Below are positions 3,196 through 49,049 of a DNA stretch of 64,000 nucleotides, piece after piece. Position 1 is the stretch's first letter. Every line of letters starts with the position of its first letter. The translations under genes were made by a program, and so were the position numbers. The DNA comes from Fibrobacter sp. (lineage in GTDB: Bacteria > Fibrobacterota > Fibrobacteria > Fibrobacterales > Fibrobacteraceae), in the NCBI GenBank assembly GCA_024399015.1, contig JAKSIC010000002.1, positions 68,732 through 132,731 of the forward strand, in the 5' to 3' direction. The notes beneath the pieces were generated by a model. The model saw only the letters and a program-made list of their open reading frames with translations, did no database searches and was not told the DNA's origin.

Positions 3196-3508
3196 GCAAG
3201 CATCGGTTTTCTACAACGGCATTTTGGCAGGTACCTTGACCAAGACTAAGGGTGGATTCATTTTCACCTACGACGAAATCTACCTTGCGTCCAGGCGCCC
3301 CGCCATCGCGTTAACATTGCCTAAGCGCCAGGAACCCTACAAGTCCAAGGAGCTGTTTCCGTTTTTTGAAGGCTTGCTGCCTGAAGGTGAAAACCGCAGG
3401 CTTTACTGCATGAGCCTGAAAATCGACCCCAAGGATTCCTACAGGCTGTTGCTGAAACTTGCGAGAAATGAAACCATCGGCGCCATCACCGTGATGGAGG
3501 ACGTATGA
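3188..3508 (+). CDS. hipS: Stand-alone HipA N-terminal domain protein (HipS-like)
   Basis: 106 aa; FIFTYDEIY, IALTLP, LFPFFEGLLPEG, ETIGAITV match the HipA N-terminal (couple_hipA) family. Confidence 0.85.
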   Translation: MARQASVFYNGILAGTLTKTKGGFIFTYDEIYLASRRPAIALTLPKRQEPYKSKELFPFFEGLLPEGENRRLYCMSLKIDPKDSYRLLLKLARNETIGAITVMEDV

Positions 3509-4545
3509 CAAGCACCACCTCCCCCACCATGCAGAACCGTTGCCATAGTTGCCTCAAGGAGACCCCTCGAGATTTTTGTCCCGCCTGTGCCAAGCGACTT
3601 TTTGGCGTAAAGAAGTTTAGCGCCACACTTGATTTTTCCTTACCCGAAATCAAGTCCAACAATGGTTCCATCCGTCGGATTTCAATTTCTGGGGCACAGC
3701 CCAAGTTTTCGCTAATAGTAAACGACGGGCGACTAGAACCTACTGAAAATGGCGGCACCTTCATCTTAAAGCCTGCGGTAGAAGGGCTGTTCGACAACAC
3801 AAAGGATATGCCCGCCAACGAGCACCTGACCATGCAAATGGCCAGACAGATTTTCAAGATCGAAGCAGCAGACAATGCGCTAGTTTATCTTAAAGACGGA
3901 ACACCGGCCTACATTACCAAGCGATTCGATGTTCTGCCCGACGGCAATAGAATCTGCCAGGAAGACTTTGCCCAGGTGGCTGGCCTCACCCCAGGCGAAA
4001 AAGGTTCCAACTACAAGTACGACTTCAGCTACCAGCAGATCGCCGACCTGATGAAGCAATATGTAAGCACTTACCCCACCGACGTTGAAAAATACTTCAA
4101 GTTGATTCTGTTCAACTACCTGGTCTGTAACGGCGACGCCCACGTCAAGAACTTTTCTGTCTACTCCCCGAATGCAGACGGGGTTTACAAGCTTGCCCCT
4201 GCCTACGATTTGCTGAATACATCCCTGCACGTTCAAGAACTTGGCCGAACCGCATTGGAACTTTTCAGCGAAAACTCAGCTGCAGACGATTCTCTCGATG
4301 ATTCCGGCGCGGACTTTGAAACGGAATTTTTCAAGGTCAACGGATTCTACGGCAAGCCGGACTTTATGGAACTAGCCCGCCGCATCGGCATCAAGGAAAT
4401 CCGAGCCCAGCGTTTTATTGCAGAAACCTGCAGCCATCTAATGGAAATGGACGCCATGATTGACCTAAGTTACTTAAGCGAGCCAAGCAAGGCGTTGTTC
4501 AAGGCGCAGGCGAGAGACCGGGCCAAGGCCCTGGAGATGGGGTGA
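3505..4545 (+). CDS. hipT: HipA C-terminal kinase toxin (HipT-like)
   Basis: SISGAQPK Gly-loop, ILKP, NEHLTM, catalytic NGDAHVKNFS, LAPAYDLL; ATGA overlap with upstream gene. Confidence 0.88.
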   Translation: MTSTTSPTMQNRCHSCLKETPRDFCPACAKRLFGVKKFSATLDFSLPEIKSNNGSIRRISISGAQPKFSLIVNDGRLEPTENGGTFILKPAVEGLFDNTKDMPANEHLTMQMARQIFKIEAADNALVYLKDGTPAYITKRFDVLPDGNRICQEDFAQVAGLTPGEKGSNYKYDFSYQQIADLMKQYVSTYPTDVEKYFKLILFNYLVCNGDAHVKNFSVYSPNADGVYKLAPAYDLLNTSLHVQELGRTALELFSENSAADDSLDDSGADFETEFFKVNGFYGKPDFMELARRIGIKEIRAQRFIAETCSHLMEMDAMIDLSYLSEPSKALFKAQARDRAKALEMG

Positions 4546-4656: not shown

Positions 4657-6309
4657 ATGAAGTTTGTAACTAAAATTCTTGTGTTTTTGGCAGTATTTGC
4701 CGCCTTTTCTTTCGCTGGAACAACTGGTCTGGATTCTTCGCCTGCGGCTCAGAATGACGCCCGTGAGAAGGCCGCTCAGAATGACACTAGGGTAACGTCC
4801 GCGACCATTGCAACCGACTCCGGTCTTTCTGGCCCGGTGGCTACAGATTCCGCCACCGGGAATGCCGCCGTCATCCCCGCCAAGAAGCATGCGGTCTGGA
4901 TCAAGCTGGAAGGCGACGTGGAACCTTCCATGTACGATTTCTGCGCCCGCGCCATTGGCGAGGCTCTGGAAGAAAATCCGGACTACATTGTTTTTGAAAT
5001 CAACACCTTCGGCGGCCGCCTGGATGCTGCCTTCAACATCGTTGACACAATCATGGCCATTCGAGGTCCCCAGACCATCGCCTTCGTTAAAAAGAAGGCC
5101 ATTAGTGCAGGAAGCCTTATCGCCTTGGCCTGCAGCAAGCTTTACATGATGGAATCCACTACCATCGGCGACTGCGCCCCCATTGTGCAGAACAGCGATG
5201 GCACCCCGCAAATCGTGGGCGAAAAGATTCAGTCTCCCCTCCGCGCCAAGTTCCGCAACCTGGCTCAAAAGAACGGCTACCCCGAATTGCTCAGTTCCGC
5301 CTTCGTCACCCCGGAACTTGAAATTCTCGAACTCCGTGCCAAGCTTGACGCAGGCAAAAAGACCGAACGCGACACCACCATGATTATTGAGTCCGCCAAG
5401 TACGAGGTCATGAGCAAGGACGAAAAGAAGTTCTGGGGCGCCCCCAAGATCCTCGTGAAGGAAGGCGAACTTCTCACCATGACCGACAAGGAAGCAAAGG
5501 ATCTGGGATTCTCCCAGGGTACCTTCAACGGACGCGACGATTTTGAGACCGCCCTCGCCATCGAAAGCAAGAGCGAAGTGGAAACCACCATGGGCGAAGA
5601 CGTAGCAAACGCCATCGCAGGAATCGCAGGCATTCTCTTGATTCTTGGTTTCGGCGCCCTGTACATCGAATTCAAGACTCCTGGATTCGGCGTATTCGGC
5701 ATAGTCGGCATCATCCTCATTGGAATCGTATTCCTGGGTCAGTTCGCTCCGCAGCTGGACGGCATGCTGCCGGCAGTTCTACTGATTGCAGGCATCGCCT
5801 TGTTCCTGGTGGAAATTTTCGTGATGCCGGGAACGTTCCTCTTTGGTATCGGCGGCATCATTTGTATGATTATCGCCCTCACCATGAGTTTCTCGCCGGC
5901 AGACATTCCGGAATATGTACCGGAAGCCGTTGAAGAATCCTTCGACGCCACGCCCTGGCTATTTGGGCTGTTCTATATGTTGTGTTGCGCGGCCATAGCC
6001 CTTGTGTTCCCCATTGCCGCCAGCAAGTACTTGATTCCGCTGCTTCCCGAAGGCTGGACTCCTATGCTGAAGACAGACCTTGAAACCGCAGCCTCCCCCA
6101 CCGAAGCCATAAGCGATGTTCGCCCTGGTGATATCGGTACAGCAAAGACTTTCCTTCGCCCCGTAGGCCAGGCACAATTTACCATGTCCGACGGCAGCGT
6201 AAAGCTTTTGGATGTTCAAACCCGTGGCGAAATCATTGAAGCCGGGCAATCCATCAAGGTGGATTACGTCCAGGAAGCGCATATATTCGTAAGCGCAAAT
6301 AACAGTTAG
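4657..6309 (+). CDS. nfeD: NfeD family membrane protein (ClpP-class protease domain, TM region, C-terminal OB domain)
   Basis: EINTFGGRLDAA, AISAGSLIA, TIGDCAPI, LYIEFKTPGFGVFG, GTAKTFLRPVG; directly upstream of floA. Confidence 0.9.
   Translation: MKFVTKILVFLAVFAAFSFAGTTGLDSSPAAQNDAREKAAQNDTRVTSATIATDSGLSGPVATDSATGNAAVIPAKKHAVWIKLEGDVEPSMYDFCARAIGEALEENPDYIVFEINTFGGRLDAAFNIVDTIMAIRGPQTIAFVKKKAISAGSLIALACSKLYMMESTTIGDCAPIVQNSDGTPQIVGEKIQSPLRAKFRNLAQKNGYPELLSSAFVTPELEILELRAKLDAGKKTERDTTMIIESAKYEVMSKDEKKFWGAPKILVKEGELLTMTDKEAKDLGFSQGTFNGRDDFETALAIESKSEVETTMGEDVANAIAGIAGILLILGFGALYIEFKTPGFGVFGIVGIILIGIVFLGQFAPQLDGMLPAVLLIAGIALFLVEIFVMPGTFLFGIGGIICMIIALTMSFSPADIPEYVPEAVEESFDATPWLFGLFYMLCCAAIALVFPIAASKYLIPLLPEGWTPMLKTDLETAASPTEAISDVRPGDIGTAKTFLRPVGQAQFTMSDGSVKLLDVQTRGEIIEAGQSIKVDYVQEAHIFVSANNS
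4731..4785. repeat. REP-like palindromic element inside the nfeD N-terminal linker (one full plus one partial copy)
   Basis: GGATTCTTCGCCTGCGGCTCAGAATGAC 4731-4758; GCTCAGAATGAC repeated at 4774-4785; related copy at 46156-46182. Confidence 0.65.
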
Positions 6310-6369
6310 TATTCTCAACAATTAGATTTTCAAAGAAAAACAAACACACTCTATACGGAGCAAAATAAA

Positions 6370-7341
6370 ATGGATACAATTTTCGCCATTGGCATTGTCA
6401 TTGCCGCCATCGTCGTCATCGTTCTTCTCGCCTTCGTAGGCAAGTTCTTTAGCCTCTGGCTTCAGGCATTGTTCTCCAAGGCAAACGTGAGCATCTTCCA
6501 GCTCATCGGTATGCGCCTTCGTAAGGTTCCGCCCCAGGTCATCGTCGAAGCACGAATCCTCAGCTGCAAGGCAGGCCTCCCGGTGGACACCAACCTCTTG
6601 GAAGCTCATTACCTTTCCCGCGGTAACGTGCTCCGCGTGATCCAGGCCCTCATTGCCGCCAACAAGGCAAACATCAAGCTGGACTTCAAGGAAGCTGCAG
6701 CTATCGACCTTGCTGGCCGTAACGTTCTGGAAGCAGTGCAAATGTCCGTGAACCCCAAGGTCATTACCACTCCTAAGGTTTCCGCAGTGGCTCTTGATGG
6801 TATTCAGCTTCACGCCGTGACCCGTATTACCGTGCGCGCAAGCATCCAGAAGTTGGTGGGTGGCGCAGGTGAAGAAACCGTTATTGCCCGCGTTGGCGAA
6901 GGCATTGTGTCTTCCATCGGTTCTGCACAGAGCCACAAGGAAGTTCTTGAAAACCCCAACATGATTTCCAAGAAGGTGCTGGCATCCGGCCTGGACGCAG
7001 GTACTGCATTCGAAATTCTTTCCATCGATATTGCCGACGTGGACGTTGGCCAGAACATCGGCGCCATCCTCGAAACCGACCGTGCAGAAGCAGACAAGAA
7101 GATTGCACAGGCCAAGGCAGAAGAACGCCGCGCCATGGCTTACGCTGCCGAACAGGAAATGAAGGCCAAGGTCATGGAAATGAAGGCTAAGCTTGTGGAA
7201 GCCGAAGCCCAGATTCCTATGGCTATGGCAACCGCCCTTCGCGACGGAAAGCTTGGCGTCATGGACTACTACAACATGAAGAACATCGAAGCCGACACCC
7301 AGATGCGAAAGGAAATCGGCAACGCACCGGAAGCTAAATAG
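6370..7341 (+). CDS. floA: Flotillin-like protein FloA (YqfA/UPF0365)
   Basis: [72 protein letters not shown]. Confidence 0.95.
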
Positions 7342-7370
7342 GTTTGAGGTACGAGGTTCCAGGTTCGAGG
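7340..7370 (+). repeat. Left heptamer array upstream of the four-helix-bundle gene
   Basis: AGGTTTG AGGTACG AGGTTCC AGGTTCG AGG. Confidence 0.8.
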
Positions 7371-7376
7371 GAAAGC

Positions 7377-7748
7377 ATGCGAAAATTCCAAGATCTTGAT
7401 ATTTGGAAACGAAGTCACGCATTAACTCTAGAGATTTATAGAGTTACGCAACAGTTCTTTCCTAAAGATGAATTATTCGCTTTGACATCTCAAATAAGAC
7501 GAGCCTCAGCCTCAATCCCGACAAACATTGCAGAAGGATGTGGTAGATCAACAAACCCCGATTTCAATCGATTTTTGCAAATTGCTTCAGGCTCAACAAC
7601 TGAAGTTGAATATCAATTGCTGTTAGCAAGAGACCTTAGTTACATCACTGAAGAGATCCATGCAAAACTCAGCACAGAAATCGTTGAAATACGGAAAATG
7701 ATTACCGCATTTTCAAAAAACATTCCAACCTTCAATGCTCGAACCTAA
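7377..7748 (+). CDS. Four helix bundle protein (TIGR02436 / 23S rRNA-IVP family)
   Basis: FQDLDIWKRS, FPKDELFALTSQIRRASASIPTNIAEGCGR, FLQIASGSTTEVEYQLLLARDLSY; start set at ATG 7377; AT-richer than floA. Confidence 0.93.
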   Translation: MRKFQDLDIWKRSHALTLEIYRVTQQFFPKDELFALTSQIRRASASIPTNIAEGCGRSTNPDFNRFLQIASGSTTEVEYQLLLARDLSYITEEIHAKLSTEIVEIRKMITAFSKNIPTFNART

Positions 7749-7767
7749 GACCTCGAGCCTGGAGCCT
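7740..7767 (-). repeat. Right heptamer array, inverted relative to the left array
   Basis: CGAACCT AAGACCT CGAGCCT GGAGCCT; reverse complement AGGCTCC AGGCTCG AGGTCTT AGGTTCG. Confidence 0.8.
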
Positions 7768-7772
7768 AGAAT

Positions 7773-8603
7773 ATGGAAGGTTTATTAATACTTATCGGCG
7801 TCTACGTTCTTGAGGTTATCATCAAGAAAGTTGCTGCTGGTAAAAAAGAAAAAGAAGCCTTGCCTCCCCAGCAACGACAGTCTCAATCCTCGCAGGAATC
7901 CTCGGGTCGCCCGGGCAATCTGCAAGATTTGATTCGACAGTTCGACGAGGCTCAGCGTCAGGCATCCCAAGGGACCCTTACGCCAGAGACGCCGCCTGTG
8001 GAAGATTTTGACGAAGACTACGAAGATGACGAGGAAGAAGTTGAATTACCTACGGTAACTCCAGCTAATCCCAACCGAATCACCTTCAAGGAAATCGCAG
8101 AATCAGTCATTCAGTGGGAAGAAGTCAGCGTCGATTATTTACAACAAGCTTTTGGTTTTTCCGAAAGCACAGCACAGCAAGTCCTTGCCGAGTTGCAAGC
8201 TCACCACATCGCGGGTCGCGACATGGGCGAAGGTTTCTGTGATCTGCTGGTACACGACAAGTCTGAACTTGACAACCTCTTCAAGCGTGAACAGCGAGAA
8301 GCTGAAGAACGCAGGGACGCCGAAGCTCAGGAAGAAGCGCTCCGCGCACGCCACGAAGCAGAACTCAAGCACCAGAAGGAACTGGCAGAACTTGAGGAAC
8401 GCGCAAGGCAGATCCGCGAACAAGCCGCACAAGGATCCCTCCCCGATGCAAGCGAAGGCATCGAAGGCCCTTGCCTAGCCTCCTCCGAGCACAAGACTCA
8501 CCGCAGGACCTTTGACAAGGCCGAAATCCGCCGCGGTTTCGTGTGGGCAAAAGTTCTGGACGAGCCCCGCTTCAAAAAGCGTTGGAGTTCCCGCGTAAGA
8601 TAA
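7773..8603 (+). CDS. YqfB-like membrane-anchored protein with an FtsK-gamma-like segment and coiled coil
   Basis: N-terminal hydrophobic helix; C-terminal EIRRGFVWAKVLDEPRFKKR resembles the tail of third genes in nfeD-floA operons; central VIQWEEVSVDYLQQAFGFSESTAQQVLAEL. Confidence 0.6.
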   Translation: MEGLLILIGVYVLEVIIKKVAAGKKEKEALPPQQRQSQSSQESSGRPGNLQDLIRQFDEAQRQASQGTLTPETPPVEDFDEDYEDDEEEVELPTVTPANPNRITFKEIAESVIQWEEVSVDYLQQAFGFSESTAQQVLAELQAHHIAGRDMGEGFCDLLVHDKSELDNLFKREQREAEERRDAEAQEEALRARHEAELKHQKELAELEERARQIREQAAQGSLPDASEGIEGPCLASSEHKTHRRTFDKAEIRRGFVWAKVLDEPRFKKRWSSRVR

Positions 8604-8651
8604 CTACGCGACAGACAACATCGCGGCGGAACCGTCCGCAACATTCAAAAG

Positions 8652-8681
8652 AAGCCTCGCAGGAAACTGCGGGGCTTTTTT
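8652..8681 (+). terminator. Intrinsic terminator of the nfeD-floA operon
   Basis: AAGCCTCGCAG-GAAA-CTGCGGGGCTT followed by TTTT. Confidence 0.8.
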
Positions 8682-8721
8682 GCATGGAACGACCTGCGCT
8701 ATTAAGTGCAAAGCATTTGAT

Positions 8722-8761
8722 AAAAAAGAACCCCGATCCCTGAAGGAACGAGGTTCTTTTT
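8722..8761 (-). terminator. Intrinsic terminator of the sdh operon (possibly bidirectional)
   Basis: AAAAAAGAACCCCGATCC-CTGAA-GGAACGAGGTTCTTTTT; pairs best on the minus strand. Confidence 0.75.
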
Positions 8762-8779
8762 AAACGATCGAGTTTACTA

Positions 8780-8875
8780 CAGGAGGTTAATCCTGGCGCT
8801 GTCACCTTTTCAAGGTTCCAGCGCGGATAACTGCGGTTCGGCAATGACAGCTCGTGCAAGCACGGCTGTCGCTGC
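8780..8875. other. Three-hairpin structured intergenic element (REP-like or small RNA)
   Basis: CAGGA-N6-TCCTG 8780-8795; GCGCTG..ACCTT-TTC-AAGGT..CAGCGC 8796-8824; GCAATGACAGCTCGTGC-AA-GCACGGCTGTCGCTGC 8841-8875. Confidence 0.5.
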
Positions 8876-8885
8876 ACTCACCTTG

Positions 8886-9668
8886 TTAGTCCTTACCATA
8901 AACCTTTTCAGCGTAGGTAGCGGTTGCCATGAGGTATTCGCGGTTCATCTTGGCGATGTAATCCACGGTGATACCCTTCGGGCAAGCAGCCTGGCATTCG
9001 TAAAGGTTGGTGCAGTTACCAAAGCCTTCCTTGTCCATCTGAGCGACCATTGCGAGCACGCGCTTCTTGGCTTCGACCTTGCCCTGGGGCAAGAAGCTGA
9101 GGTGAGAAACCTTGGCAGAGACGAAGAGCATAGCGGAAGCGTTCTTACATGCAGCAACGCAAGCACCGCAACCAACGCAAGCAGCAGCGTCGAATGCGCG
9201 GTCTGCATCAGCCTTGGGAACGGGGATCACGGAAGCTTCGGGAGCGGCACCGGTGTTGACGGAAACGTAGCCGCCAGCAGCGATGATGCGGTCGAATGCG
9301 GAACGGTCCACAGCGCAGTCACGGATAACCGGGAATGCAGCAGCGCGCCACGGTTCGATCACGATGGTATCGCCATCCTTGAACTTACGCATGTGCAGCT
9401 GGCAAGTGGTGATGCCGTGGTCGGGACCATGGGGCATACCGTTGATGACCAGAGAGCACATACCGCAAATGCCTTCGCGGCAGTCGTGGTCGAAAGCGAA
9501 GCCTTCCTTGCCCTGCTTCATCTGTTCTTCGTTGACAATGTCCAGCATTTCCAGGAAGGACATGTCCGGAGAGATACCGGTGGCCTTCACAGTTTCGAAC
9601 TGGCCCTTGGTCTTTGCGTCCTTCTGACGCCAAATCTTCAAAGTCAGATTCATCAAACCGTTGCTCAT
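8886..9668 (-). CDS. sdhB: Succinate dehydrogenase/fumarate reductase iron-sulfur subunit
   Basis: [37 protein letters not shown]. Confidence 0.97.
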
Positions 9669-24769: not shown

Positions 24770-24808
24770 AAAAAAACGCCTTGCAGTTTTACTGCTAGGC
24801 GTTTTTTT
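24770..24808 (-). terminator. Intrinsic terminator downstream of glyA
   Basis: A-run, ACGCCTTGCAG-TTTTA-CTGCTAGGCGT, T-run. Confidence 0.75.
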
Positions 24809-24902
24809 AATTATGAATTATGAATTACGAATTACTAGACTAAACCAGGCGGCTCCGCCGCGTTTATCTTATCTCGTAAATCGTACTTCGTAATCGGTAA
24901 TT
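24809..24902. repeat. Inverted heptamer arrays around a GGCGG-CT-CCGCC core, no gene inside
   Basis: Left AATTATG AATTATG AATTACG AATTACT (24809-24836); core 24848-24859; right CGTAAAT CGTACTT CGTAATC GGTAATT (24875-24902). Confidence 0.75.
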
Positions 24903-24925
24903 ACAAGTAATTTCTCTTCGAGAAA

Positions 24926-47585: not shown

Positions 47586-48941
47586 ATGAAAAAATCAGTA
47601 CCTATTACAGTGCTCACCGGTTACTTAGGAGCCGGTAAAACTACTCTCCTCAACTACGTTCTTAACAATCAGGAAGGCTATCACGTAGCTGTTATCGTCA
47701 ACGACATTGGCGAAGTCAACATTGACCAGACCCTTATCGAAAAGGGTGGAAACATCACCAAGGAAGATTCCGGCAAGTTGGTTCCCCTTTCCAACGGTTG
47801 CATTTGCTGCTCCCTGAAGCAGGACATGCTGGAACAGATTGCCGAAATTCTTGAAACCGGCAAGTTCGACTACATTCTTATTGAAGCCAGCGGCATTTGC
47901 GAACCCGTACCTATCGCACAGACCATTTGCATGGCTGGATCCCAGCTCCAGAGTAAGAGCGGCGAACCTCTCCCCTGCCATCTGGACAGCGTAACCGCAG
48001 TGGTAGACGTTCTGCGTCTAGCCGACGAATTCGCTGGTGGCGAAAAGCTTCTCCAGAAGGACCTGGAAGAAACCGACATTGCAAATCTTTTGATCCAGCA
48101 GATCGAATTCTGCAACACCATCATCCTGAACAAGGTGGATAGCCTTTCCAAGAACGACTTGGAACATGTGAAGGCTGTTGTGAAGGCCCTGCAGCCCACC
48201 GCCAAGATGATCGAGACCAACTTCGGTAAGGTGGACATGAAGGAAATCCTGGACACCAAGCAGTTTGATTTCGAGAAGGTTGCTGAAGGCGCTGCCTGGG
48301 CCATCGAGCTGAACAAGATCGATGACGACCACGATGATGATGACGATGAAGACGAACATGAACATCATCATCACGACCATGACCACGAAGATCACAGCGA
48401 TTGCGACCATGAACATGGCGTTTGCCACCACCATCACGACGATGATGATGACGACGACCACGATCATGAACATCACCATCACGACCACGACGATGAAGAC
48501 CACAGCCACTGCGATCACGAACACGGTGTTTGCCACTGCGGTCATCATCACGACAAGGATCATCCCCATGGTGACGAATACGGCATTTCGACCTTCGTGT
48601 ACGAACGTCGCCGTCCCTTCGATCGCAAGAAGTTCGAAGCATTCCTGGATGACTATCCTAACGCAATCATCCGCACCAAGGGTCTCCTGTGGTTCTCAGA
48701 CGAACGTACTGAAAGCTACCTCTTCGAACAGGCTGGCAAGCAGGCAACCGCACAGAATTTCGGTCGCTGGTTTGCAGCAGAAGACAAGGCTACCCAGCAG
48801 ATGATCCTTTCCCAGAATCCGGACCTCATGAAGGTTTGGGACGAAGAATACGGTGACCGTATCATTCGCCTCGTCTTCATCGGCCAGCACATGGAAAAGA
48901 ATAAGATCATCGCAGTTCTCGACAGCTGCCTGGACAAGTAA
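47586..48941 (+). CDS. COG0523/CobW family metallochaperone GTPase with long His/Asp-rich insert
   Basis: GYLGAGKTT, VNDIGE, GCICC, IEASG, NKVD, CobW_C IIRTKGLLW..LVFIG. Confidence 0.93.
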   Translation: MKKSVPITVLTGYLGAGKTTLLNYVLNNQEGYHVAVIVNDIGEVNIDQTLIEKGGNITKEDSGKLVPLSNGCICCSLKQDMLEQIAEILETGKFDYILIEASGICEPVPIAQTICMAGSQLQSKSGEPLPCHLDSVTAVVDVLRLADEFAGGEKLLQKDLEETDIANLLIQQIEFCNTIILNKVDSLSKNDLEHVKAVVKALQPTAKMIETNFGKVDMKEILDTKQFDFEKVAEGAAWAIELNKIDDDHDDDDDEDEHEHHHHDHDHEDHSDCDHEHGVCHHHHDDDDDDDHDHEHHHHDHDDEDHSHCDHEHGVCHCGHHHDKDHPHGDEYGISTFVYERRRPFDRKKFEAFLDDYPNAIIRTKGLLWFSDERTESYLFEQAGKQATAQNFGRWFAAEDKATQQMILSQNPDLMKVWDEEYGDRIIRLVFIGQHMEKNKIIAVLDSCLDK

Positions 48942-48972: not shown

Positions 48973-49049
48973 TATGAAGTATGATGTATGAAGTATGAGA
49001 TTCGACGAAGTACGAATTACGAGATTTTTATAATGAATGAAGTACGAGC
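48973..49049 (+). repeat. Single heptamer array (TAYGAAG-type)
   Basis: TATGAAG TATGATG TATGAAG TATGAGA, GACGAAG TACGAAT TACGAGA, AATGAAG TACGAGC. Confidence 0.7.

Follow-up and report, generated by a model that had tools for sequence, protein, structure and literature searches.

A gene for a small four-helix-bundle (4HB) protein, located between floA and the following gene of a Fibrobacter operon and bordered on both sides by tandem 7-nt repeats, raises the question of what gene and repeats are to each other. The locus is embedded in a stretch of 64,000 nt (Fibrobacter sp., assembly GCA_024399015.1, contig JAKSIC010000002.1, positions 68,732 to 132,731, forward strand), referred to as the window, whose coordinates are used throughout. 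An earlier note on this DNA had read the unit as a non-autonomous mobile cassette ending in heptamer arrays. The answer that we consider fairly probable is that the unit is a selfish gene cassette of the intervening-sequence (IVS) type, placed in an operon spacer instead of in rRNA; on sequence grounds, 4HB cassettes as a whole family are characterized by a conserved heptamer in inverted arrays.

Organization of the Cassette

The features of the locus are the following:

7339-7768, + strand: whole cassette (left arm, 4HB gene and right arm), 430 bp, missing en bloc in empty alleles
7340-7374, + strand: 5' heptamer array, AGGTTTG AGGTACG AGGTTCC AGGTTCG AGGGAAA
7377-7748, + strand: 4HB gene, 123 aa, PF05635/TIGR02436 (S23p) according to profile matches and to structure 2GSC
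7740-7767, + strand: 3' heptamer array, CGAACCT AAGACCT CGAGCCT GGAGCCT, reverse-complementary to the units of the 5' array
4657-6309, + strand: nfeD, first in the operon, encoding an NfeD1b-type membrane protease (PF25145 NfeD1b_N and PF24961 NfeD_membrane)
6370-7341, + strand: floA, flotillin-like (PF12127, 507 bits; NF010186, 518 bits)
7773-8603, + strand: next gene of the operon, 276 aa, hydrophobic in an N-terminal segment, a conserved partner of floA in Fibrobacter

What the earlier note had described of the unit itself was found again. The four AGGTTCG-like heptamers that it placed at the floA stop are AGGNNNN units spanning 7340-7367, followed by a degenerate fifth one (AGGGAAA, to 7374); the floA stop codon TAG (7339-7341) makes up the outermost bases of the left arm, so that the first heptamer begins inside it. 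The four reverse-complement heptamers occupy 7740-7767, and the TAA stop of the 4HB gene (7746-7748) falls inside the second of them. The unit of about 430 bp separating floA from the third gene measures exactly 430 bp (7339-7768), and the insert is indeed richer in AT than its flanks, the GC content of the 4HB gene being 0.38 vs. 0.54 in floA and 0.53 in the downstream gene.

The Shine-Dalgarno sequence of the 4HB gene (GAGGG, 7366-7370) lies within the last 5' unit, 6 nt ahead of the ATG at 7377, while the last unit of the 3' array provides a GGAG about 10 nt ahead of the ATG of the downstream gene (7773), which is located five bases past the array. The cassette hence supplies the TAG stop for floA, its own Shine-Dalgarno sequence and the GGAG for the downstream gene. 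Tandem Repeats Finder detected the 5' array at 7340-7370 (period 7, 4.4 copies, score 41), and a repeat finder returned inverted arms of 31 nt (7339-7369 and 7738-7768) that are 74% complementary, or 88% in a slipped register (7354-7370 and 7751-7767). When the 64 kb were searched on both strands for four or more consecutive AGGNNNN units, these two sites only were retrieved; since none of 200 shuffles contained such an array, the arrays are not due to chance.

The Encoded Protein

The membership of the encoded protein in TIGR02436, asserted by the earlier note, is clear (135.4 bits, cutoff 24), and PF05635 is matched with 139 bits (cutoff 33.8), residues 5-110 covering profile positions 1-105 of 106. 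Among solved structures, the closest is that of XCC0516 (2GSC, E = 2.8e-21, five chains); 2RLD is matched with E = 4.4e-07 and also has five chains. Crystal structures of the S23p family are pentameric rings (PMC4990558). In 20 diverse sequences, the residues W10, P29, Q39, S46, N50-I-A-E-G54, F66, S73, and E76 are invariant, the polar ones being Q39, S46, N50, E53, S73, and E76. The ratio of non-synonymous to synonymous substitution rates (dN/dS) is 0.07-0.11, i.e., the ORF is under strong purifying selection, and the protein shares 52-60% identity with metagenomic relatives in unrelated gene contexts and 35-54% with plasmid copies. The low dN/dS, the identity retained across unrelated contexts and the invariant NIAEG motif point to a functional protein. 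Since the homologues begin with MRxF, its start is the ATG at 7377 and not the TTG at 7344 chosen by the ORF lister.

Gene callers often extend 4HB ORFs through the arrays, yielding calls of 130-172 aa for proteins of about 116-123 aa (examples are proteins P0004-P0008, P0031, P0037, and P0046). In two loci, L006 and L084, the true 4HB ORF reads through the 3' array, its tail ending in ...PEAWSL and ...SSLEP, respectively.

The relatedness to Avd of diversity-generating retroelements (DGRs), mentioned in the earlier note, stands as homology, although both Avd family profiles score below their cutoffs (PF22296, 25.5 bits, cutoff 40; NF033474, 24.3 bits, cutoff 80) and the match to PHROG 3206 (Avd) is weak (E = 3.8e-08); the 4HB protein is a distant relative of Avd. 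No catalytic family was matched in Pfam, NCBIfam, PADLOC or PHROG, and PADLOC gave no defence family.

Conservation of the Flanking Repeats among 4HB Genes

A metagenome scan for 4HB relatives yielded 80 further loci, and the counts given below are taken from 72 non-redundant loci. At most of the metagenomic loci, tandem heptamers are located before the start and after the stop of the gene, as in the flank pairs GAGCTAT... / ...GCTCAAA, GGTCAGC... / ...GCTGACC, and GTTAGCC... / ...GCTAACA. The best period-7 score (of 21 comparisons) has a mean of 15.4 upstream and 15.7 downstream, vs. 8.7 in control windows of these contigs; in the 4HB flanks, periods 3-6 and 8-11 do not exceed the background, the enrichment being confined to period 7. 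An array is present on at least one flank in 60/72 loci and on both in 41/72, and the same score is reached in 1.4% of the control windows. The period-7 flanks that the earlier note had suggested looking for in other members of the family are therefore widespread. Moreover, when the complementarity of the arms was assessed by an ungapped pairing score, the two arms of a locus paired at 21 or more of 24 positions in 49% of the loci, vs. 13.5% for arms taken from different loci and 0.5% for shuffles.

The consensus of the unit is T-S-A-G-C-N-N (in the register of the 5' array, A-G-C-n-n-T-S), and the 3' units are its reverse complement. Within arrays, five positions of the unit are conserved (0.94-0.99) and two are variable (about 0.7). 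The unit of the cassette type found in the window (type I, see below), Y-G-A-G-G-T-N, is a variant of this core. The number and the order of the units vary among cassettes whose proteins are 99-100% identical; units are rapidly gained and lost. A crude ORF test placed the end of a co-directional upstream ORF inside or at the array in no fewer than 28/72 loci, with TAG in half of them, and the start of a co-directional ORF no more than 40 nt past the 3' array in 25/72.

The same organization is not restricted to metagenomic contigs. Arrays are present on both flanks of the 4HB gene in Nostoc punctiforme plasmid pNPUN02 (TCAGGAG x5 and CTCCTGA-type), in a Riemerella plasmid (TTYAAGG and AACCTTR) and in an Azospirillum plasmid (GACAGAG and CTGTCNT-type), while in two further cyanobacterial copies they are mainly one-sided. 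At Xanthomonas XCC0516, a (GGGAATC)x4 array overlapping the start codon is reported in a supplementary table, without comment by the authors (PMC4692102). TAACTGA-like units flank the 4HB genes of three loci (L109, L118, and L133). A scan of viral contigs retrieved one 4HB relative only, so carriage of close relatives by phages is not common, and a conserved 23S motif was absent from the 173 loci examined for an rRNA context.

That the arrays are accidental products of slippage, functionless and unlinked to the gene, is extremely improbable. In the bacterial genomes surveyed by Mrazek (2007; cited in PMC4679880), no class of simple repeats with longer units (5-11 nt) is commoner than heptanucleotides, and the number of units does vary among near-identical cassettes. 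However, slippage would not account for an enrichment that is specific to period 7 and affects both flanks of one gene family, for the fixed orientation of two mutually inverted arrays, or for a core conserved across phyla, and no shuffle of the window gave such an array. An origin of the arrays by chance or slippage was thus excluded on the basis of the period-7 enrichment, the complementarity of the arms and the conserved core.

In a second long-lived slot, a 4HB cassette lies directly 5' of a gene recognized by eye as GMC-type oxidoreductase-like (...DYVIIGSGFGGSV...). It is represented in many soil and freshwater contigs (L131-L136, L139, L146, L153, L155, and L164), and a complete array hairpin, TCAGC-type and then GCTGA-type, is located there upstream of the 4HB gene.

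Repeats without a Gene

Arrays of similar appearance are also found apart from any 4HB gene. At 24808-24903 of the window, directly after an intrinsic-terminator-like hairpin, four ATTAYGA units, about 35 nt and four TCGTAAN units form a gene-less hairpin, whose stem measures about 27 bp (-31.3 kcal/mol, z = -3.7). It resembles a solo copy derived from an element of this kind, comparable to a miniature inverted-repeat transposable element (MITE). After another terminator-like hairpin, at 48973-49040, a direct heptamer array (TATGAAG/TATGATG..., then GATTCGA, AGTACGA, and ATTACGA) is present; no mirrored partner was seen near it. Furthermore, the loose ends at 7337 and 7750 (runs X2, X4, X25, and X27) led to another contig of the same communities that carries type I units, arranged as ...GCTAAGTAATGAATAGGTTTGAGGTACGAGG-4 nt-CTAGGCTCCAGGCTCGAG, then ACGAAATGTCATTG, then CGAGCCTCGAAGAGGC, apparently a solo heptamer hairpin past the stop of a different gene.

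Repeats of this period have a history of their own. The heptanucleotide repeats known as short tandemly repeated repetitive (STRR) sequences were reportedly first described in cyanobacteria in 1990. The cassette arrays, with head-to-tail 7-nt units in intergenic position and in variable number, have the properties by which heptanucleotide simple repeats are defined. TAACTGA arrays occur in Beggiatoaceae, cyanobacteria and Bacteroidetes (PMC4679880), and GGGAATC and GGGGATT repeats in Xanthomonas and Nostoc, respectively, with 70-75 convergent pairs in Xanthomonas (PMC4692102); neither paper mentions a 4HB/S23p gene. Bacterial heptanucleotide repeats have so far been explained by slippage only (PMC4679880). 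The link between heptamers and the 4HB family may connect the latter to these orphan repeats. In addition, the figure legend of a large discovery study lists a "23S rRNA IVP" among novel CRISPR-associated proteins (PMC10910872); short tandem arrays beside 4HB genes could be what the CRISPR-array finder detected.

Distribution and Turnover of the Cassette in Fibrobacter

In order to follow the locus across the genus, FloA was searched in species-representative genomes, giving 80 loci onto which the four window proteins were mapped. Both empty and filled alleles, whose comparison the earlier note had recommended, were found. In at least 11 Fibrobacter genomes the slot is empty, with 3-20 nt separating floA from the downstream gene (for example, 'aagTAA AGC ATGGAAGG'). 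Among the mapped FloA loci, the slot contains a 4HB gene with heptamer arrays in L003, L006, L013, and L015; in L013, the gene is truncated at its 5' end and the arrays are retained. The closest locus, L001, from a metagenome-assembled genome of horse-faeces Fibrobacter (FloA identity 99%), shares with L011 a third state, in which an unrelated ORF, small, highly charged and devoid of heptamers, occupies the slot; variability is hence a general property of this site. The charged ORF is located at 4970-5394 in L001 and at 4967-5257 in L011 (sequence MIEGLVELAVEAVKD...KRKLAKQKRKEP...).

Three types of cassette can be distinguished on the basis of their units: type I (AGGYTCG / CGARCCT; the window, L081, L006, and L084/L093), type II (CAGGTTA / TRACCTG-like; L015 and L088-L092) and type III (NNNTGAG / CTCANNN; L003, L013, L094-L097, L100, and L102). 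The arrays vary between cassettes, yet every 3' array mirrors its own 5' array. The floA stop codon is TAG in all the filled alleles and TAA in 8/10 close empty ones, and the spacers preceding the downstream ATG in the filled alleles are unlike those of the empty alleles. A TA is present at both outer ends in 7/7 filled Fibrobacter alleles; it may belong to a TAG...CTA inverted repeat. Related cassettes are also located elsewhere: that of L096 follows a lysS-like gene and that of L108 precedes a map-like gene, both neighbours being named by eye.

The synonymous divergence (dS) of the cassette was compared with that of its flanks. Between L084 and L097, nfeD and floA differ by a dS of 0.22-0.25, and the cassettes (type I vs. 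type III) are saturated; between L003 and L100, the values are 0.21-0.26 for three flanking genes and 2.03 for the cassette. The reverse holds for L097 and L100, with 1.5-1.8 in the flanks and 0.96 in the cassette, while cassette and flanks are concordant in the pairs window/L081 and L006/L084. Since the discordance goes in both directions, replacement of the cassette is independent of its flanks. In the identity profile, the drop in nucleotide identity covers the stretch between the final ~25 nt of floA and the downstream ATG, and the GC content of every cassette is 0.34-0.40 vs. 0.51-0.62 in the flanks. In rough neighbour-joining trees, filled and empty states are interleaved (floA nucleotides), and the three slot types are not monophyletic (4HB protein), grouping instead with metagenomic relatives from other slots (L096, L108, L101, L106, and L115). 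In L003, type I and type III units are combined in a chimeric 5' array.

Vertical inheritance accompanied by losses only was rejected as the whole story, given dS values that are discordant both ways and slot types that are not monophyletic. Independent insertion is not required as the sole explanation, as recombination in the flanks suffices and the L003 array is chimeric. The turnover observed here could be due to insertion or to recombination in the highly conserved flanks; the sequence data fit either.

A possible explanation, on balance doubtful, is that of a DNA transposon-like cassette, whose arrays would be multi-site terminal inverted repeats, bound as double-stranded or hairpin DNA by a recombinase, either one encoded at another site or one that the 4HB protein assembles; by a cut-and-paste mechanism, the unit would enter sites at TA or close to stop codons. 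Block-wise presence or absence with clean empty sites, the related cassettes in unrelated slots, the TA at both outer ends of the seven filled alleles and the low GC content of every cassette all agree with it, as do the MITE-like gene-less hairpins (window 24808-24903 and other contigs of the same communities), a conserved core that reads the same at both ends in duplex DNA and the lack of a G·U bias in the arms (see below). However, as the earlier note had stated, no transposase or integrase is present among the neighbour genes within about 4 kb of the cassette, and the 4HB protein lacks a catalytic family match. Moreover, no unambiguous target-site duplication was found, the nearest relatives share the slot and the one relative that has been studied is an RNA-processed element (PMC4990558). 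Within the species, neither an empty allele nor a joint was seen: the circular intermediates suggested by the earlier note did not turn up, as four same-species metagenomes contained no empty-allele or circle joint, an absence that is weak evidence, assembled contigs dropping rare variants. Of the non-autonomous mobile cassette proposed by that note, what holds is that the unit turns over as a cassette and that gene-less array hairpins exist; its active transposition is conjectural, as is its non-autonomy, given a 4HB gene that is strongly selected and is the only factor always travelling with the arrays. Since the Coxiella IVS has the same architecture, a role of the arrays at the RNA level is at least as likely as one as transposon ends.

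The spacer between nfeD and floA is a second variable slot. It measures 60 nt in the window and about 2.3 kb or more in L002, L005, and L024, and in some Fibrobacter genomes an extra ORF of 291-433 aa or more lies between the two genes (L084-L086, 619-1920).

Possible Role of the Arrays in the Transcript

In the predicted RNA fold of the whole element, a terminal stem of about 29 bp is present in both the minimum free energy (MFE) and the centroid structure (MFE -125.3 kcal/mol, z = -5.15). No promoter-like or terminator-like site was found on the + strand from the floA start to the end of the downstream gene, and a metatranscriptome contig spans 7270-7730, i.e., from floA through the 5' array into the 4HB gene, although contamination by DNA is possible. 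The RNA evidence for the locus consists of assembled contigs (runs X19 and X25); the runs consisting of raw reads, X21 and X22, are DNA and hardly cover the cassette. The cassette appears to be co-transcribed with the operon.

The IVS-type reading is preferred because the size and the layout of the cassette match those of the Coxiella 23S rRNA IVS. The two arrays can pair, giving an imperfect stem of about 30 bp by which the entire gene is enclosed. According to this reading, RNase III might cut this stem in the transcript, as in the Coxiella IVS, freeing the cassette RNA, and such a release would make the insertion tolerable to the host. By analogy, a stem neither cut nor opened would mask both ribosome-binding sites, and it might be opened by ribosomes ending the translation of floA, whose stop codon lies at the stem base. 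The core of the unit is conserved across phyla and is not needed for pairing, which implies a factor that reads the sequence. The likeliest candidate would be the pentameric 4HB ring encoded inside, as the encoded protein is the only conserved partner of the arrays. The unit would spread as a block, moved by some enzyme.

The same position of the arrays invites another explanation, which we regard as rather unlikely, namely a resident regulatory module. In this case, the 4HB ring would bind the tandem units in its own mRNA in a TRAP-like manner, controlling its own translation or stability and that of the downstream gene; the arrays would grow by slippage, and the cassette types would be old alleles shuffled by homologous recombination. 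Arrays that abut the start codon and hold Shine-Dalgarno sequences, a conserved 5-nt core with a 2-nt variable spacer, the pentameric rings seen in crystal structures of the family (2GSC and 2RLD), the strong purifying selection, the chimeric array of L003, in which type I and type III units are mixed, and the long occupation of the floA slot across the genus and of the GMC-type slot in many metagenomic loci are all consistent with such a module. It leaves unexplained, however, the mirrored 3' array, the gene-less hairpins and the presence of the gene-plus-arrays block in tiny spacers of unrelated operons and in 23S rRNA helices, and the persistently low GC content argues for repeated introduction.

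If the cassette RNA were released, its spread could in principle be mediated by RNA itself, an idea that we consider very improbable. The RNA freed by RNase III would be copied by a reverse transcriptase (RT) encoded in the genome, with the 4HB pentamer as an Avd-like cofactor, and the cDNA would be integrated; reiterated copying of a short template would make the heptamer arrays. The homology to Avd (PF22296, NF033474, and PHROG 3206, with the scores given above), which is an RT- and RNA-binding partner, and insertions in transcribed, sense-oriented positions can be adduced in its favour. Against it stand Avd scores far below the family cutoffs, the lack of an RT in the part of the window that was screened for one, namely the genes located up to about 4 kb from the cassette, and the lack of a poly-A or priming signature; no data require an RNA intermediate.

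As for the IVS-type cassette, several observations count against it. The turnover at the slot could be the product of homologous recombination within floA and the conserved 5' part of the downstream gene. No clear target duplication was found, the ends sharing only TA, possibly as part of an inverted repeat; the closest 4HB homologues (72%, 68%, and 62% identity) occupy the same floA slot; and four same-species DNA metagenomes hold the filled allele only, a weak objection in that assembled contigs drop rare variants. The stem is imperfect (74% over 31 nt), and the conserved core of the unit is not required for it. Among the non-Watson-Crick positions of the arms, G·U and A·C are equally frequent (82 vs. 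83; in the best stems, 20 vs. 16); there being no excess of G·U, nothing marks the sense RNA over DNA as the level at which complementarity matters. This test is neutral: it neither supports nor excludes an RNA stem. Finally, we infer the binding of the 4HB protein to the arrays, and cleavage by RNase III, demonstrated for the rRNA copy, would apply to this cassette by analogy.

Genomic Context

The neighbours of the cassette are genes for a HipA_C kinase, NfeD1b, FloA, the 276-aa protein and the Fe-S and flavoprotein subunits of a fumarate reductase/succinate dehydrogenase. The earlier note had called the third gene of the operon YqfB-like; this designation was not confirmed, as the 276-aa protein has no match in Pfam, NCBIfam, PADLOC or PHROG. 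An Rfam search of 6000-9000 (E-value mode) returned no family for the arrays or the stem, and downstream only sub-threshold chance matches. The HipA_C-domain gene, located just 5' of nfeD (3505-4545), encodes a toxin-type kinase (PF07804, E = 3.8e-45). Elsewhere in the window, Tandem Repeats Finder detected a 126-bp tandem repeat at 428-730 (2.4 copies, 83% matches) and, at 48320-48536, a region with periods of 108 and 51 bp, rich in CAC, GAC and GAT codons and hence His/Asp-rich if coding.

Implications

To our knowledge, the annotation "four helix bundle protein" is carried by tens of thousands of genes that are without a known function, and we know of no explanation, since the early 1990s, for the origin of the ORF-bearing intervening sequences of 23S rRNA. 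If gene and arrays are one unit, the protein gains a testable ligand (the 7-nt core), and the repeats gain a candidate vehicle; three loose ends, i.e., the function of the 4HB proteins, the origin of the ORF-bearing IVSs and the heptanucleotide repeats, would be joined. Copies located inside operons offer a tractable and, unlike rRNA, non-essential setting for the study of RNase III processing, translational coupling, and mobility. On the practical side, the arrays lead gene callers to extend 4HB ORFs, with calls of 130-144 aa for proteins of 116-123 aa, and may be mistaken for CRISPR-like arrays.

It is tempting to go further, in a generalization that we put forward tentatively and as doubtful. 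PF05635 genes and inverted T-S-A-G-C-N-N arrays might constitute one widespread class of selfish cassettes, of which the IVSs of rRNA would be a special case and whose gene-less derivatives would be the source of the STRR, TAACTGA and GGGAATC repeats. The ring would read one unit per subunit and aid the moving or copying of the cassette, possibly together with an RT, as Avd does. A literature search, incomplete in its coverage, found no statement linking PF05635/S23p genes in general to heptamer arrays, the Coxiella paper alone noting heptamers, and this in a single species.

Comparison with Known Systems

The cassette resembles MITEs, repetitive extragenic palindromes (REP) and the mosaic elements built from them (BIME), and integron cassettes, in that it is small, intergenic within an operon, bounded by inverted-repeat or hairpin ends, devoid of a recombinase of its own and present or absent as a block. 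Its ends, however, are arrays of 7-nt units and not a single inverted repeat, a REP or an attC; it carries a strongly conserved gene of its own, and neither a clear target duplication nor an integrase, RAYT or transposase partner was identified. As in DNA transposons and MITEs, there are terminal inverted repeats (here as 7-nt unit arrays), empty and filled sites, and copies at several loci, the sites differing between species, while within the species the filled allele alone was seen in four metagenomes; a transposase is missing within about 4 kb. From integron cassettes it differs in having repeats at both ends, in their being tandem heptamers and in its location in a housekeeping operon without an integrase.

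The Avd of DGRs binds nucleic acid and its own RT, and we know of no description of heptamer arrays as a DGR feature. With Avd (PF22296 and NF033474), the 4HB protein shares a homologous four-helix-bundle fold that forms pentamers; unlike in DGRs, neither an RT nor a template repeat or variable repeat adjoins the gene (among the genes within about 4 kb), and with profile scores below the cutoffs the protein is not assigned to the DGR Avd proteins.

TRAP is an 11-mer ring whose RNA site consists of spaced GAG/UAG triplets with a period of about 5. The analogy is functional and does not imply homology: in both cases there would be a ring oligomer and tandem xAG cores with variable spacers just before a start codon. 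The folds are unrelated, TRAP is an 11-mer and the 4HB ring a pentamer, the periods are about 5 and 7, respectively, and the binding of arrays by the 4HB protein is a proposal.

The orphan heptamer repeats (STRR, TAACTGA, GGGAATC, and GGGGATT) are like the cassette arrays in their period of 7, in their intergenic position, often stopping just a few nt short of a start codon, in forming often convergent, hairpin-capable pairs, in their patchy phylogenetic spread and in having no known vehicle. Unlike the cassette arrays, they are treated in the papers as free-standing (as G-quadruplexes or translational operators), and most of them do not adjoin a 4HB gene.

The closest counterpart is the 23S rRNA IVS of Coxiella burnetii, a "selfish" element of 428-444 nt in helix 45 that encodes S23p (PF05635), with two or three GACAGAT units and GACAGAA directly before the ORF start, a unit number that varies among strains and a terminal stem of 28 bp cut by RNase III in vitro (PMC4990558). 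The same paper cites the ORF-bearing IVSs of Leptospira and Brucella, as well as older ideas according to which IVSs are remnants of transposition or mobile elements with a mobility ORF (PMC4990558). The window cassette differs from it in lying between protein-coding genes, floA and its downstream partner, and not in a helix (9, 25 or 45) of the 23S rRNA, and in its 4HB gene, with a dN/dS of about 0.1, the ORF of Coxiella being in decay and apparently untranslated; in Coxiella, moreover, the heptamers were noted as a strain polymorphism and not as a feature of the family or as the substance of both arms. What the two have in common is their size (428-444 nt vs. 430 bp), within the overall length of about 430-760 nt of long IVSs, an S23p ORF preceded by heptamers in variable number, terminal inverted repeats closing a long stem (about 28 bp in Coxiella; here from 31-nt arms, 74% complementary), the lack of a mobility gene of their own, a nature deemed selfish and an unexplained origin. 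The architecture was thus already known from the Coxiella IVS; what is added here is an S23p element outside rRNA and the family-wide link between the 4HB gene and its heptamers.

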